From: an uncultured Syntrophales bacterium
GTDB lineage: Bacteria > Desulfobacterota > Syntrophia > Syntrophales > JADFWA01
DNA: 64,000 nucleotides
NCBI GenBank assembly: GCA_964650385.1
Contig: CAZYTP010000001.1
Span: forward strand, 352-64,351
Direction of reading: 5' to 3'
The notes under the pieces are model-generated. The model was not told the origin of the DNA. It saw only the letters and a program-made list of their open reading frames with translations, and ran no database searches. Below, one piece after another: positions 47,394-64,000 of the stretch (position 1 is the stretch's first letter; each line of letters begins with the position of its first letter). The translations under genes were made by a program, and so were the position numbers.

Positions 47394-49112
47394 TCACGAA
47401 AGTTCAATACTGGAACAAGATTCCAGCATATACTTGACCCGCATGGAGATCGTGTGATTTTTCATCACGGCTTCCCTGCCCCGCTCTGCAATTTCGAGTG
47501 CTTCGTCTCCGTGTTCCAGATAATATGCTGCCTTAGAAAAAAGCTCTTCCAATGTACGGTAGGTTTCAACCTCTCTTCCCAGATCAAAAATCTCACCGAT
47601 TTCATCGCTATATTCAGCCAGAACGAAACCTCCGCAAGCCATAATATCAAAGATCCTCATCGGAACGATATCCATCTGGTAAAGCCTGTTTATATCGACA
47701 TTAATCGAGGATGCACAATAAATTTTGTTTATCTCATAAGAGTGGCCGGCACTCCCCATATATTTGACTCCGTATTGCTCTGCCATCCGCCATCCCTCAT
47801 CCCCCCATACTTTTACATCAAAATCGTTTAATCCGGCGAGATAGTTGATTCGCTTTTCCGCTGCCGCAATCTCACCTACGAGCATAAACGGATCGTGGGT
47901 CCCATTAAGACCTGAGAAGTAATTGAGGAAATCAGGGAAATGTTCACGGAGAAGATCCGGAATCACATAATTCGAAAGATCCTTTCGTTGTTCCGACAGA
48001 ACTTCTTCCAAAAGACGCACCCCTTTTCTCACCGCTTCATTGTCATCACCCAGGTACGCCTTGTAGTTTGAAAGAAAAATATCCTTACAAGCATTTGCAT
48101 TGTCAATCATACTCGATCCGACAAAGGACAGGGAAGCGCCATATTTATTTTGCTCCTCCGGTGAAAGATGCGGCGCTGATCTTTTTTCAATATCAGAAGC
48201 AAGAAAAAGATGCTCAACATTCTTAAATCCGGCTTCTACAAATTCGGATACATTGGTTTTACGATAAGTAAAGATGTAAGTCCGATCGGCCGGTGCCTTA
48301 CACGGTTTCAATCGGTCTGTTGCCGGATCTACCTCCCAGCAGACCAGATCGACGTTGTTGCTGTGGCAAAACTCAGCAAGGCCATTCATATAATTGACTG
48401 CAAAGACCACCTGTGGATTAAAACACCTGACCGTCATCTTCATTTCTTCAAGAGACAGCTTTCGTATATCAAGAGTATAAATAGAAAAACCAAGTTCCTC
48501 GAACGCTTTGCACACATCATCCGCGAAAAGATCTTCGGAACATATAATCGCCCGTTTTTCTCCCACTCCGCGCTCTATCAACTTCTGTTCATTCTTGTAA
48601 ACCTGACTCAGAAGGGGATGGTATATAACCGTGCCATACCTCGCCATACCGAGTATGTCTAAAATATCAATACCCATACGAACTTTCAGACGGCCGGATT
48701 TAAGATGTTCACTGTAGTCTTTTTGCATCAGGACAAGTCGGACAAGCCACGGATCCCGATCCCAGACAGTAATCCTGACCTTGCTGAATTGCTGCAATAT
48801 ATAATCAAGCTGCTCTCCCAATCCGATACCGAAAAGGAGTATGTTCTTTGCATCGCTAACATCACCCAGTGTGCTTTCTATCTCTTCATTATCAATAACG
48901 AAAGGTAATTGAGTCCGATGCCTCTCGTAACGAATTCCTCCGCCATCCAGAAAATGAATATGAGACCCGTCGACAGGCATGCATATCCGCTGAAATAAAT
49001 TCTCATCAATGGCGGCTAAAAATGCCAAATTCCTCTCTAATGTTGTCTCGGAAAACTGTTCCGGGAGTTTCTGATTCTTTATTGTCACTGATTCACCCTT
49101 CCTCAAAAGCAC
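47394..49112 (-). CDS. CgeB-family (DUF3880 + Glyco_trans_1_2) glycosyltransferase-like protein
   Basis: 572 aa. The C-terminus INVDINRLYQMDIVPMRIFDIMACGGFVLAEYSDEIGEIFDLGREVETYRTLEEL is typical of CgeB-like enzymes. Confidence 0.75.
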   Translation of the reverse strand: MLLRKGESVTIKNQKLPEQFSETTLERNLAFLAAIDENLFQRICMPVDGSHIHFLDGGGIRYERHRTQLPFVIDNEEIESTLGDVSDAKNILLFGIGLGEQLDYILQQFSKVRITVWDRDPWLVRLVLMQKDYSEHLKSGRLKVRMGIDILDILGMARYGTVIYHPLLSQVYKNEQKLIERGVGEKRAIICSEDLFADDVCKAFEELGFSIYTLDIRKLSLEEMKMTVRCFNPQVVFAVNYMNGLAEFCHSNNVDLVCWEVDPATDRLKPCKAPADRTYIFTYRKTNVSEFVEAGFKNVEHLFLASDIEKRSAPHLSPEEQNKYGASLSFVGSSMIDNANACKDIFLSNYKAYLGDDNEAVRKGVRLLEEVLSEQRKDLSNYVIPDLLREHFPDFLNYFSGLNGTHDPFMLVGEIAAAEKRINYLAGLNDFDVKVWGDEGWRMAEQYGVKYMGSAGHSYEINKIYCASSINVDINRLYQMDIVPMRIFDIMACGGFVLAEYSDEIGEIFDLGREVETYRTLEELFSKAAYYLEHGDEALEIAERGREAVMKNHTISMRVKYMLESCSSIELS

Positions 49113-49228
49113 TCCATTAATAATCTCTTGAGACCTATGTTATCTATTTTATTAACGTACTGTGTAACAAAGCCAGTAAACTGGCCTTTGATTAATTCAT
49201 GTGAGGTTATACAGTTTGCCATATATCC

Positions 49229-49244
49229 AGCAAGTTATGTGCCA
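49229..49244 (-). promoter_or_regulatory. Sigma-54 promoter (consensus-perfect) for the 47394-49112 gene
   Basis: The minus strand reads TGGCAC-ATAAC-TTGCT, 117 nt upstream of the ATG at 49112. Confidence 0.75.
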
Positions 49245-49527
49245 TATCATTATATGAAGCTTAGATCTTAAGCCGGTTATGTTTGTCAGGTGCGTGCAAG
49301 TATTTTCGTGTCGTTTTGTGAGACCTGAACGTTGTCAGTATTTTGACACACAGGAGCCCTACGGCTCTGTGAAACTAAACTGCAAATTCTGCCGTTTCAC
49401 GAACCAGTGAATAGAGTTTTTTCTTACTTTGCACCAGTTCGACACGATCAAAACTTGTCCAATAGGACAGGACATATAATTTCATGTTAACCTTGTTAAA
49501 AACATTGATCGAACTGTCTCCAACAAA

Positions 49528-49543
49528 TGGCACAACCTTTGCT
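49528..49543 (+). promoter_or_regulatory. Sigma-54 promoter (consensus-perfect) for the 49672-53430 genes
   Basis: TGGCAC-AACCT-TTGCT, 129 nt upstream of the ATG at 49672. Confidence 0.75.
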
Positions 49544-61853: not shown

Positions 61854-62587
61854 AAGCCGTTATCTTGTGTGCAGGAACAGGGAGTCGCCTTGGGAATTTA
61901 ACGAAAGCCGTTCCCAAACCAATGCTTCCACTGAATGGAAAGCCCCTTCTTGCATACACCCTCAATTATTTGACAAAGTTCGATATTCGCGAAATTGCCA
62001 TCAATGTGCATTTTTCCCCCGATCAAATTACAGATTACTTTAAGGATGGCCAATCCTATGGGGCCAGCCTCCACTACTCACACGAGGAAAAACTCTTAGG
62101 AACTGCGGGGGCTCTGGTCAAATTGGCCCCCTGGCTTGCAGATGAAAAGGAGTTTCTTGTGTTATACGGTGACATCCTAACCGATCAGAATATTTCTCTC
62201 CTGATCGACAAACACCATAAGGAGCGAAGTTTCGCGACACTCCTGCTCCATAAGCGAAAAAAATCAAACAGCATTGTAAAAATTGACGAAACGAATCGAA
62301 TAGCCTGCTTCGAAGAAAGACCATCAGAAGATAAAAAAAGGGGTCTGTTAAAAAACAATGACGATGTATGGGTGAATTCCGGTGTGCAAGTACTGAGCAA
62401 TGAAGCATTGGACTATATTGTCAATACCGGTGCATTTGACTTGCCACGGGATGTTTACTGTAACTCTGTTGAAAACAAGAGAATATTCGGAGTGCCTTTG
62501 ACCGGATTCAGAATCGCTATCGATTCACCAGACCGCTATCACGAAGCTGAACAGGCCATTAAGAGAGGAAATTACAAATTTTCTTAA
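61850..62587 (+). CDS. sugar-1-phosphate nucleotidyltransferase (HddC-like)
   Basis: 245 aa starting [34 protein letters not shown] (NTP_transferase signature). ATGA overlap with gmhB. Confidence 0.75.
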   Translation: [245 protein letters not shown]

Positions 62588-62629
62588 AATAGCCACAGAC
62601 CCACACAGGCATACACGGAAAATAAGAAA

Positions 62630-63196
62630 ATGAAACATTTTACAGATTACGCCACACGCCTGAACAACATTTTACAGAACCATAATTGGAAAGATGTTCA
62701 CAAATTGACCGAGGCCTTGCTTATCGTTTGGAAAGAAAAGAAGCAGGTGTTTCTTTGCGGTAATGGGGGAAGCGGTGCCAACGCAATTCATTTTGCCAAT
62801 GACTTAATTTACGGTGTTTCAAAAGGTAACCGCCCTGGTTTGAAAGTTCATGCACTACCTGCAAATCAATCTGTTATAACCAGCCTTGCAAACGACATTT
62901 CTTATGAAAATGTTTTTTCTTATCAACTGGCTGTGTTGGGAGAACCGGGAGATATTCTACTCGCATTTTCAGGAAGTGGAAATTCTTCCAATATTGTTAA
63001 AGCGATTCAAAAAGCAAAAGAACTGGAAATGAAAACCTTTGCTTTGCTTGGATTTTCAGGAGGTAAATCATTGGAGTTGGTAGATGTGGCAATTCATTTT
63101 CCTGTCGATGATATGCAAATAGCAGAAGATTGTCAGCAAATAGTCGGACACATGATAATGCGTTGGCTGGCGGATAATAGGCATTCTGTACGATGA
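62630..63196 (+). CDS. gmhA: phosphoheptose isomerase (SIS domain)
   Basis: 188 aa with VFLCGNGGSGANAIHFANDL and LLAFSGSGNS. Confidence 0.9.
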   Translation: MKHFTDYATRLNNILQNHNWKDVHKLTEALLIVWKEKKQVFLCGNGGSGANAIHFANDLIYGVSKGNRPGLKVHALPANQSVITSLANDISYENVFSYQLAVLGEPGDILLAFSGSGNSSNIVKAIQKAKELEMKTFALLGFSGGKSLELVDVAIHFPVDDMQIAEDCQQIVGHMIMRWLADNRHSVR

Positions 63197-64000
63197 AAAA
63201 AATAACTGAAAAGATACTGGTAATTGGCAGCAACTCCTTTTCAGGTGCCAGTTTTGTTGATTACGTCCTCAGGGAAGGTACGGAAGTGATCGGAGTAAGC
63301 CGTTCTCAAGAACCAAATCCGATTTCCCTTCCTTACAAAAGTCAGCAGAATGCTAATTTCCGATTCTACCAAATGGACTTAAATCATCATTTAGAACAGG
63401 TTATGGATCTCATCCGTGAGTTTCGACCGGGCTATATAATTAATTTTGCGGCACAAAGCATGGTAGCGGAAAGCTGGCAGAACCCCGAACATTGGTTTGT
63501 GACTAACGCGGTTTCCAATGTAAAGCTCCATGATCAGCTTCGCCGATGTGACTTTCTGGAGAAATATGTTCATATTTCTACCCCGGAAGTTTATGGCTCA
63601 TGTCGCGGATTAGTCAGGGAAAGTACTCCGTACAATCCGAGTACACCTTATGCGGTTTCACGTGCAGCGGCGGATATGAGTTTGATGACCTTTTATAAAG
63701 AATATGATTTCCCGGTTGTGTTTACACGTGCCGCAAATGTGTATGGTCCGGGACAGCAACTCTATCGGATTATTCCACGGACAATCCTCTTTTTTCTTAT
63801 AGGCAAAAAACTTCAGCTGCATGGAGGTGGTCATTCCGTTCGCTCTTTCATTCATATCCGTGATGTAGCAGATGGCACACTTCGTGTGGCTCGTCATGCA
63901 CCAGCCGGTGAAATTTATCATTTTTCCACTATCAGAAACGTCTCCATACGATCTCTGATCCAGATGATTGCCGAACAGATGAACATATCATTTGAAGACA
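63193..64000 (+). CDS. extended-SDR NAD-dependent sugar-nucleotide dehydratase/epimerase, 5' part (runs off the right edge)
   Basis: My own translation from the ATG at 63193 (ATGA overlap with gmhA): MKKITEKILVIGSNSFSGASFVDYVL...HISTPEVYGS...PYAVSRAAADMSL...TRAANVYGPGQ. It is RmlB/4,6-dehydratase-like. Confidence 0.8.
   Translation, partial: MKKITEKILVIGSNSFSGASFVDYVLREGTEVIGVSRSQEPNPISLPYKSQQNANFRFYQMDLNHHLEQVMDLIREFRPGYIINFAAQSMVAESWQNPEHWFVTNAVSNVKLHDQLRRCDFLEKYVHISTPEVYGSCRGLVRESTPYNPSTPYAVSRAAADMSLMTFYKEYDFPVVFTRAANVYGPGQQLYRIIPRTILFFLIGKKLQLHGGGHSVRSFIHIRDVADGTLRVARHAPAGEIYHFSTIRNVSIRSLIQMIAEQMNISFED

Follow-up and report, generated by a model that had tools for sequence, protein, structure and literature searches.

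Glycosylation of flagellin in the cytoplasm is the best-understood route to O-glycans that needs no lipid carrier and is attractive for glyco-engineering; to our knowledge, the flagellin transferases described so far are essentially Maf, FlmG and a few enzymes that join a glycosyltransferase family 2 (GT2) domain to tetratricopeptide repeats (TPRs), mostly from pathogens. In the FlmG mechanism of Caulobacter crescentus, soluble TPR-bearing transferases recognise flagellin and add sugars singly before export (PMC7591256), and the pairing of TPRs with a glycosyltransferase (GT) is used in the literature as a criterion for flagellin glycosyltransferases, recent surveys of flagellin glycosylation islands included (PMC7591256, PMC13317340). 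Heptose on flagellin has a single precedent, FliC of enterotoxigenic Escherichia coli (ETEC) (PMC5000012), and TibC and Aah, the GT9-related bacterial autotransporter heptosyltransferases (BAHTs), move heptose from ADP-heptose onto serine or threonine residues of proteins in the cytoplasm (PMC4358343). Our literature search on GT9 enzymes, heptose and CgeB in flagellin glycosylation returned only the heptosylation of ETEC FliC and nothing on CgeB-like enzymes. Here we analyse a glycosylation island that covers at least position 47394 onward of a 64,000-nucleotide stretch of DNA from an uncultured Syntrophales bacterium (contig CAZYTP010000001.1, positions 352 to 64,351), referred to throughout as the window.

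Flagellin glycosylation islands are already well known, and this one best fits a flagellin-type, oligosaccharyltransferase-independent system of cytoplasmic O-glycosylation. Like the islands of Campylobacter, Pseudomonas aeruginosa, Aeromonas, Clostridium and Geobacillus, it is a variable mosaic of soluble glycosyltransferase, nucleotide-sugar and methyltransferase genes with no lipid carrier or exporter; a sister genome has a pseudaminic acid (Pse) pathway in its version of the island, and homologous modules elsewhere stand beside flagellin, fliD and fliS. Unlike them, it shows no Maf (PF01973) match, carries GT9, CgeB-like and GT41 enzymes and a heptose pathway, is far larger (at least 36 kb) and has no adjoining flagellin gene on the contig. 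New here are an enzyme set that combines three GT9s with five CgeB-like proteins and a GT41 and is without Maf, the cassette linking heptose, transketolase and kinase genes, the size of the island, and the linkage of divergent GT9 subfamilies to flagellin across several phyla. We put the probability that flagellin is the target of the island in this organism at roughly 65%, and hold with clearly greater assurance that a protein, whichever it is, is glycosylated.

An earlier note had read an uninterrupted run of 13 genes between 47394 and 64000. All of them are present as open reading frames (ORFs), and their domain families were confirmed by the Pfam, NCBIfam and PDB (phmmer) searches which, with the ORF listing, underlie these assignments:

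47394..49112, minus strand: CgeB-like GT-B glycosyltransferase, 572 aa (Pfam PF13524 99.6 bits; PF12996, DUF3880/YkvP_N, 27.6 bits; Glyco_trans_1_2), without a transmembrane segment
49672..51825, plus strand: 717-aa protein with TPR, DUF3880 and Glyco_trans_1_2 (Pfam, AlphaFold, Foldseek, PDB phmmer)
51883..53430, plus strand: 515-aa protein with a weak GT-B domain (Glyco_trans_1_4 20 bits, below the cut-off) and C-terminal TPR at about 398-500 (PDB match)
53636..54844, minus strand: divergent, heptosyltransferase-like GT9 glycosyltransferase, 402 aa (PF01075 34.2 bits)
55332..56390, minus strand: GT2 domain with C-terminal TPR-like helices, 352 aa (PF00535 63.6 bits; TPR_2 25.7 bits)
56575..57183, plus strand: stand-alone TPR protein, ORF of 202 aa (181 aa by the gene caller; TPR_19 53 bits and TPR_2 47.6 bits, above the cut-offs)
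57236..58321, plus strand: GT4 (Glycos_transf_1), 361 aa (PF00534 78.6 bits)
58387..59580, plus strand: second divergent GT9, 397 aa (PF01075 30.3 bits)
59584..61272, plus strand: HldE-like bifunctional enzyme in reversed order, 562 aa (cytidylyltransferase-like nucleotidyltransferase at 70-213, PfkB heptose-7-P kinase at 243-545)
61269..61853, plus strand: GmhB-like HAD phosphatase (heptose 1,7-bisphosphate 7-phosphatase-like), 194 aa (Pfam; PRK08942 143 bits, cut-off 178)
61850..62587, plus strand: sugar-1-phosphate nucleotidyltransferase, 245 aa (PF00483 104 bits)
62630..63196, plus strand: GmhA-like sedoheptulose-7-phosphate isomerase with SIS domain, 188 aa (SIS_2 81 bits; NCBIfam gmhA 129.7 bits, cut-off 209)
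63193..64000, plus strand: NDP-sugar 4,6-dehydratase-like short-chain dehydrogenase/reductase (SDR), cut by the window end and 332 aa in full (Epimerase 153 bits, GDP_Man_Dehyd 149 bits)
46479..46934, plus strand: 151-aa protein at the left edge, of uncertain island membership, with no Pfam match even at E ≤ 1

The link to flagellin comes from homologues of these proteins. A search of 5.8 billion clusters returned only nine relatives of the 717-aa protein at E ≤ 1e-10, and we examined five of these relatives (P0004, P0006, P0007, P0008 and P0009). Around three of them, P0009 (L007/L008), P0004 (L009) and P0008 (L096), a conserved module ends directly before flagellin, with FliD and FliS following and FlaG also present in L096. 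The same module surrounds P0007 on a contig that stops before the downstream genes (L010), and P0006 (L095) has as its neighbour a cassette in which genes for a reversed HldE, SIS and SDR proteins, a split transketolase and an APH kinase are combined (L095 13329-21151). The flagellin-linked loci belong to separate lineages, since their GC content ranges from 40 to 62%. FliD beside these modules is very large (1030-1188 aa, about twice the usual size; L007 17505-20975, L009 17936-21502, L096 7421-10513).

The module includes counterparts of five window proteins (717, 515, 402, 352 and 361 aa) at 25-50% identity (tblastn), four of which are fused pairwise in the relatives. Counterparts of the 402-aa GT9 and the 352-aa GT2-TPR protein form proteins of 1022-1075 aa lying upstream of flagellin (L007 11514-14741, L009 12288-15434, L010 12065-15271, L096 2501-5569), the GT9 matching their N-terminal domain at 31-35% identity and the GT2-TPR protein their middle part at 31-33%. 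Counterparts of the 515-aa protein and the 361-aa GT4 form proteins of 907-923 aa (L007 5141-7906, L009 472-3195, L010 6062-8833); here the 515-aa protein aligns with the N-terminal halves at 31-36% over about 500 aa and the GT4 with the C-terminal halves at 24-27%. All four are separate genes in the window, partly on opposite strands, and from the fusions in the relatives we argue that they act together.

The island does not end at 64000 after 16.6 kb, as the earlier note had it, and continues on the same contig for at least 19.5 kb past the window. The GmhA protein was found on JGI contig Ga0265594_1000059 (86.5 kb), which agrees with the window at every one of the 11,371 bases compared. This gives an island of at least 36 kb and at least 32 genes, from 47.4 to 83.5 kb in window equivalents, as a lower bound, with 2.6 kb of contig beyond view. 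The extension adds about 19 genes to the same plus-strand run, which opens with the 202-aa TPR gene and comprises about 26 genes in all. They encode the full 332-aa SDR, a second SDR of 312 aa, a split transketolase (289 + 318 aa), a zinc-dependent alcohol dehydrogenase (Zn-ADH), an APH-family kinase of 547 aa, an RmlD-like reductase, four methyltransferases and a fifth that is truncated where the fetched stretch stops, a 577-aa protein with no significant family match, and GT-B enzymes comprising two CgeB-like proteins of 430 and 331 aa and a long GT9 of 547 aa. They also include a TPR-GT41 protein of 769 aa (L012 18274-20583; PF13844 200.8 bits). The Maf domain (PF01973, MAF_flag10/DUF115) is absent from the Pfam matches of every island protein, the 577-aa protein included.

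A second and broader association with flagellin was found for the long GT9. We recovered 80 loci with this protein, of which 33 carry a long form (at least 470 aa) and 47 a short one. Flagellin lies within 5 kb of the gene in 20/33 long-form loci compared with 0/47 short-form loci (Fisher p = 1.6e-10); in most cases it is 70-890 bp downstream, with fliD and fliS after it. The flagellin-linked long forms span Nitrospirota, Fibrobacterota, Calditrichota and Thermodesulfobacteriota, and the short forms score higher against E. coli WaaC, WaaF and WaaQ. Loci named Nitrospira or Nitrospirae show a fixed order of CgeB331-like gene, long GT9 (about 557 aa), flagellin, fliD and fliS (L030, L034, L038, L040, L042-L046, L050, L053, L054, L056 and L075, about 8700-15500 in each). 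At its C-terminus the Nitrospira long GT9 is extended by about 200 aa that match no Pfam family, and our reading of the literature turned up no description of it.

The island proteins appear to be soluble. The earlier note had seen no transmembrane segment by eye, and our scan of 30 island proteins (19-residue Kyte-Doolittle window, threshold at least 1.6) agrees in that none looks like a polytopic membrane protein. No window reached the threshold in 25/30, and the other five have isolated peaks (ADH346, 7 windows; MT391, 4; reversed HldE, 2; unk577, 2; GT9_547, 1) compared with 66 windows in the control, AmtB encoded in the window. The absence of lipid-carrier and export genes, first noted for the window, extends to the whole island: across its at least 36 kb, none of the Pfam matches points to a flippase, a polymerase, a ligase, a polyprenyl-phosphate transferase or an ABC exporter.

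TPR modules were assigned to the 717-, 515-, 352- and 202-aa proteins, and the call stands for all but the 352-aa protein, which has sub-threshold Pfam matches only. The Pfam TPR matches of the 717- and 515-aa proteins are likewise below the gathering score; PDB searches matched the 515-aa C-terminus to consensus TPR at E = 1e-39 and the 717-aa protein to TPR structures at E = 2.6e-10. An AlphaFold model of the latter has eight helices at 194-323 (pLDDT 80-94), equal to four TPR-like repeats, which superpose on consensus TPR and OGT TPR structures at an rmsd of 1.9 Å (Foldseek). With the 769-aa GT41, TPRs are thus confirmed in four island proteins (717, 515, 202 and 769 aa).

The 717-aa protein is laid out as an alpha/beta domain (1-190), the TPRs (194-323) and a CgeB-like GT-B domain at about 346-717 (DUF3880 and Glyco_trans_1_2, together 431-716); pLDDT is below 50 in the catalytic half, so that the model is good for the N-terminal domain and the TPRs only. 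Compared by domain order, it resembles FlmG, in which TPRs N-terminal to a GT-B domain in one soluble protein bind flagellin and the GT-B domain transfers pseudaminic acid, and differs by the extra N-terminal domain of about 190 aa. On this comparison it is a candidate flagellin-docking glycosyltransferase. The alpha/beta domain (window 49672-50240; pLDDT about 75-87 in the better-modelled blocks) belongs to no Pfam family, is kept in full-length homologues and is missing from the shorter P0008 and P0009.

In GmaR of Listeria and the FgtA-type flagellin glycosyltransferases, TPR repeats come after a GT2 catalytic domain. Compared by architecture (PMC13317340), the 352-aa protein shares this order; it is much shorter, and in relatives it is fused behind a GT9 domain. 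In the PDB search the 769-aa GT41 matched plant SPINDLY at E = 8e-191 (residues 88-738) and human OGT at E = 1e-166, with alignments of about 650 residues that take in both the TPR and the catalytic domains. SPINDLY and OGT are protein-glycosylating enzymes. Unlike them, the island protein comes from a bacterium and is encoded among genes for glycan biosynthesis; its sister-genome counterpart has a methyltransferase fused to it.

That sister genome emerged from a genome scan with the long GT9, which returned an 82%-identical copy in an 'uncultured Syntrophales' metagenome-assembled genome (MAG; locus L014) and a 48%-identical one in a second Syntrophales MAG. Orthologues of eight island proteins are found in L014 at 82-90% amino-acid identity: GT2-TPR352 (88%), TPR202, GT4_361, GT9_397 (90%, and 59% in L015, also Syntrophales), CgeB430, CgeB331, GT9_547 and GT41. 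L014 lacks a cassette of about 17 kb, from the reversed HldE to the 577-aa protein (window 59580 to L012 14113, about 76.7 kb in window equivalents), and GT9_397 and CgeB430 lie only 75 bp apart there. Between TPR202 and GT4 it has an aminotransferase (DegT), a GNAT and a 284-aa gene that are absent from the window, and further right a complete pseudaminic acid pathway of PseB, C, F, G, H-like and I, encoded as a PseB-MerR fusion, PseC, PseF, PseG, a formyltransferase, NeuB/PseI and acetyltransferases. Pseudaminic acid is the classic flagellin sugar. Glycosylation islands typically keep their backbone of transferases while exchanging the sugar cassettes, and the 17-kb difference looks like such swapping.

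A PseB-like UDP-GlcNAc 4,6-dehydratase with an N-terminal MerR-type helix-turn-helix, an unusual fusion of an enzyme to a DNA-binding domain, is encoded at L014 15784-17127, L098 1177-2529 and L099 235-1590. At L098 5990-9865, genes for ATP sulfurylase, APS kinase and a sulfotransferase-like protein are inserted within the pseudaminic acid cluster, which hints at a sulfated nonulosonic acid. L098 was considered as a continuation of the island contig and rejected on its GC content (53%, compared with 42% here) and its identity of only 66-86% to the sister genome.

The cassette at the right end of the window would supply the sugar. Translational coupling had been claimed for it and is evident in the four-base overlaps at 61269/61272, 61850/61853 and 63193/63196, which make up three of the four junctions among the last five window genes. 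Also upheld is the reversed arrangement of the HldE-like protein, with the nucleotidyltransferase N-terminal and the PfkB kinase C-terminal in both Pfam and NCBIfam. HldE has an N-terminal kinase and a C-terminal adenylyltransferase; here the order is the opposite and both domains score below the equivalog cut-offs (rfaE_dom_I 122 bits, cut-off 345; rfaE_dom_II 97.8 bits, cut-off 181.5). The earlier hddC-like label held for the 245-aa protein as far as the sugar-1-phosphate nucleotidyltransferase family: the HddC model gave 95 bits (cut-off 300), the best was MurU (114 bits, cut-off 250), and MurU, ManC, HddC and RmlA all score below their cut-offs. The full-length SDR332 reached 209 bits as dTDP-glucose 4,6-dehydratase (cut-off 365) and 71 bits as gmd, and is RmlB-like rather than GMD/DmhA-like.

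The PfkB-type kinase suggests a beta-heptose-1-phosphate route. A single route from sedoheptulose-7-P to NDP-heptose, followed by 4,6-dehydration and then reduction or epimerisation with methylation, would be the most economical reading of the interleaved, coupled genes. Heptose or 6-deoxyheptose is a plausible transferred sugar. The cassette (window 59584-64000 and L012 603-7010: reversed HldE, GmhA, RmlB-like SDR, N- and C-terminal halves of a split transketolase, APH) recurs at L095 13329-21151, beside a TPR-CgeB protein on an unrelated metagenome contig. The combination of transketolase and kinase suggests an undescribed heptose derivative that is C2-extended, branched or phosphorylated.

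The earlier note also had sigma-54 promoters driving the left part of the island. The consensus TGGCAC-N5-TTGC occurs without mismatch at exactly two sites in the 64 kb (mean 0.08 in shuffled sequences; 0/100 shuffles had two), and two imperfect sites lie in or beside the island:

49230..49244, minus strand: perfect sigma-54 -24/-12 consensus TGGCACATAACTTGC, about 118 nt upstream of the 572-aa gene
49528..49542, plus strand: perfect sigma-54 -24/-12 consensus TGGCACAACCTTTGC, about 130 nt upstream of the 717-aa gene
46246..46260: sigma-54-like site with one mismatch, associated with the 151-aa gene at the left edge
55130..55144, plus strand: sigma-54-like element TGGCATATTTATTGC in the 487-bp spacer 54845-55331, pointing away from both neighbour genes

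The two perfect sites stand back to back in the 559-bp divergent spacer 49113-49671, each facing its own gene, which supports the proposed wiring as far as three genes (572 aa on one side, 717 and 515 aa on the other). The 572-aa gene is probably a single-gene transcript from the leftward promoter. A sigma-54-like site also precedes fliD in L007 (17412) and L009 (17827). Scans for sigma-70 promoters and terminators found no excess over shuffles, inverted repeats that might serve as enhancer sites in the sigma-54 spacer were not convincing, and an Rfam search of 45-64 kb had no match.

The TGGCATATTTATTGC element is conserved base for base in the sister genome. The spacer that holds it, between GT9_402 and GT2-TPR352, is about 80% identical to L014 1-473, and the roughly 50 nt from the element onward are almost perfectly kept; small ORFs downstream of it are not conserved, because of a 1-nt indel. 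The element could be the promoter of a small RNA or an antisense promoter. Two further sigma-54-like sites with one mismatch, at 14458-14472 (minus) and 14850-14864 (plus), flank the spacer between an amidophosphoribosyltransferase-like gene and an ammonium transporter gene. The region upstream of an ammonium transporter is a classic place for a sigma-54 promoter, and these sites are consistent with nitrogen control by sigma-54.

In the order of steps that we infer, the island of at least 36 kb would build a complex O-linked flagellin glycan in the cytoplasm, free of a lipid carrier and before flagellar type III export. Transferases that bear TPRs or are partnered with them (717, 515, 352 and 202 aa, and the GT41) would dock on folded flagellin and start glycosylation on serine or threonine. 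The GT4, the three GT9s and the three further CgeB-like proteins would then extend the chain sugar by sugar from nucleotide sugars. Sedoheptulose-7-P-derived NDP-heptose would come from the coupled cassette (GmhA, reversed HldE, GmhB, nucleotidyltransferase, RmlB-like dehydratase), and two more SDRs, the split transketolase, the Zn-ADH, the APH-type kinase and five methyltransferases probably make the sugar 6-deoxy, methylated or otherwise modified. The two divergent sigma-54 promoters would control the three leftmost genes.

Several observations weigh against this reading. Inspection to the right of 64000, which the earlier note had recommended, turned up no wzx, wzy or waaL in the 19.5 kb seen, and no flagellin either; none lies in the 47 kb left of the island, and no flagellar structural gene was found in the 64-kb window or in the 19.5 kb to its right. 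It is thus from homologues in other lineages, at 25-50% identity, that the target is assigned. The 30 kb seen of the sister genome likewise contains no flagellin or flagellar structural gene. Among the long-form GT9 loci, 13/33 have no flagellin in view, including those from Cloacimonadota and Acidobacteriota, phyla not known to us for flagella. Nitrospira or Nitrospirae names are attached to 20/33 of these loci and supply 14/20 of the flagellin-linked ones, so that the counts are phylogenetically non-independent and the independent observations nearer five. A consensus search gave no match for sigma-28, and sigma-54 dependence of the island genes would follow from consensus matches only. The matches to GmhA, GmhB and HldE domains are the best for their proteins, yet all heptose-pathway proteins score below the NCBIfam equivalog cut-offs. 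The sister genome keeps its GT9s without the heptose cassette at the same site, and the GT9 donor could therefore equally be housekeeping ADP-heptose. Pseudaminic acid and heptose pathways also feed lipopolysaccharide (LPS) and capsules. On the favourable side we count the chemosensory operon 8 kb to the left.

With no flagellin on the contig, the island might glycosylate another protein, such as a pilin, an S-layer protein, an adhesin or, in the manner of OGT, cytoplasmic proteins. Enzymes of the GT41/OGT family act on many intracellular proteins, protein binding by TPR modules is generic, and the long-form loci without nearby flagellin point the same way. However, the shared module adjoins flagellin, fliD and fliS in every locus that reaches the downstream side, and among the neighbours of the island we identified none that encodes a pilin, an S-layer protein or an autotransporter. 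We regard a target other than flagellin as unlikely.

Synthesis of LPS inner core, O-antigen or capsule, with the lipid-carrier and export genes elsewhere in the genome, is a second alternative. Heptose and GT9 enzymes are hallmarks of the LPS core, and Pse and 6-deoxyheptose occur in O-antigens and capsules. The 402- and 397-aa GT9s exceed the PF01075 gathering cut-off of 22, the pathway resembles HldE, GmhA and GmhB, and the nearest PDB matches of the window GT9s are WaaF and WaaC. These matches, together with 3tov, are weak, and TibC was not matched (PDB phmmer, E ≤ 1). On WaaC/WaaF/WaaQ-type NCBIfam models the 402-aa GT9 scores 28-44 bits and the 397-aa GT9 28-30 bits, compared with cut-offs of 135-569. 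In an alignment with E. coli WaaC, WaaF, WaaQ and WaaU and the fetched homologues, neither the N-terminal GD motif (WaaC Asp13) nor the D(T/S)GxxH motif (WaaC Asp261) is lost from any of the three island GT9s; the 402-aa protein has GD and D-T-x-x-x-H. All three look catalytically competent. They share the GT9 fold and these motifs with WaaC, WaaF and WaaQ, and differ in their low scores, their separate clades and their lack of a lipid A-core context. In a rough neighbour-joining tree (no bootstraps), the 402- and 397-aa GT9s group with the flagellin-adjacent fusion proteins and the 547-aa GT9 with the long flagellin-linked forms, all three outside the WaaC, WaaF and WaaQ clusters.

Neither the island nor the 30 kb of the sister genome contains waaA, lpx, wzx, wzy, waaL, phosphoglycosyltransferase (PGT) or ABC genes. 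The earlier preference for soluble, cytoplasmic protein glycosylation over LPS core synthesis is upheld by the flagellin-linked homologues, the failed Waa membership, the four TPR-bearing proteins, the GT41 and the absence of lipid-carrier and export genes. The failed Waa membership, the missing lipid A-core and export genes, the TPR and GT41 content and the synteny with flagellin together make LPS or capsule synthesis very unlikely. Least probable of all is a cytoplasmic or surface polysaccharide like that of the Bacillus CgeB/Sps spore crust, neither flagellar nor LPS and exported by unlinked machinery: the five CgeB/YkvP-like proteins, the many methyltransferases and the sister-genome PseF homologues that the sources name SpsF recall it, but other lineages have their CgeB-like homologues linked to flagellin, the acceptors are more likely proteins in view of the TPR and GT41 enzymes, and we know of no spore-forming Syntrophales.

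Relatives of the 402-aa GT9 are scarce: a search among 1.84 billion representatives gave 27 at E ≤ 1e-30. Unlike the BAHTs TibC and Aah, the window GT9s have TPR partners rather than autotransporter substrates, in addition to their lack of a PDB match to TibC. It is possible, although we lean towards doubting it, that the divergent GT9s are flagellin (protein) heptosyltransferases of a class not recognised before, separate from the LPS Waa enzymes and the BAHTs alike, occurring in a 402/397-aa type, fused to GT2-TPR in relatives, and a 500-580-aa long form, across Nitrospirota, Fibrobacterota, Calditrichota and Desulfobacterota. With CgeB-like, GT4 and GT41 enzymes, they would build a heavily methylated flagellin glycan containing a heptose or higher-carbon sugar from the conserved cassette (reversed HldE, GmhA, RmlB-like dehydratase, split transketolase, APH kinase), whose product sugar is undescribed.

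To the left of the island, the chemosensory (che) operon occupies 28213-40232 and encodes a ParA-like ATPase, proteins of 178 and 488 aa without a significant family match, CheR, CheD, a receiver, CheB, a CheA-CheW fusion, CheY and CheX; no methyl-accepting chemotaxis protein gene is in view. Between it and the island lie a gene for a PAS-PAS-GGDEF cyclase (44031-45527) and one for a 672-aa protein (40362-42380, minus strand) that ends in an FGE-sulfatase (formylglycine-generating enzyme-like) domain and whose N-terminal 400 aa or so are assigned to no family. A FlaG or chaperone-like identity was considered for the 151-aa protein at 46479-46934 and dropped, as it has neither a Pfam match nor a homologue in the fetched loci.

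The island and its relatives point to a wider repertoire of flagellin transferases (GT9, CgeB-like, GT41) in environmental anaerobes and nitrifiers, and to heptose-derived sugars on flagella. The flagellin-adjacent pair of long GT9 and CgeB-like genes in Nitrospira is an accessible test system. ADP-heptose-type metabolites are innate-immune signals, and protein-linked heptose on flagella, if true, would therefore be of broader interest. Should the target prove to be another protein, the island would remain a system of protein glycosylation by soluble enzymes, and an unusually large one.

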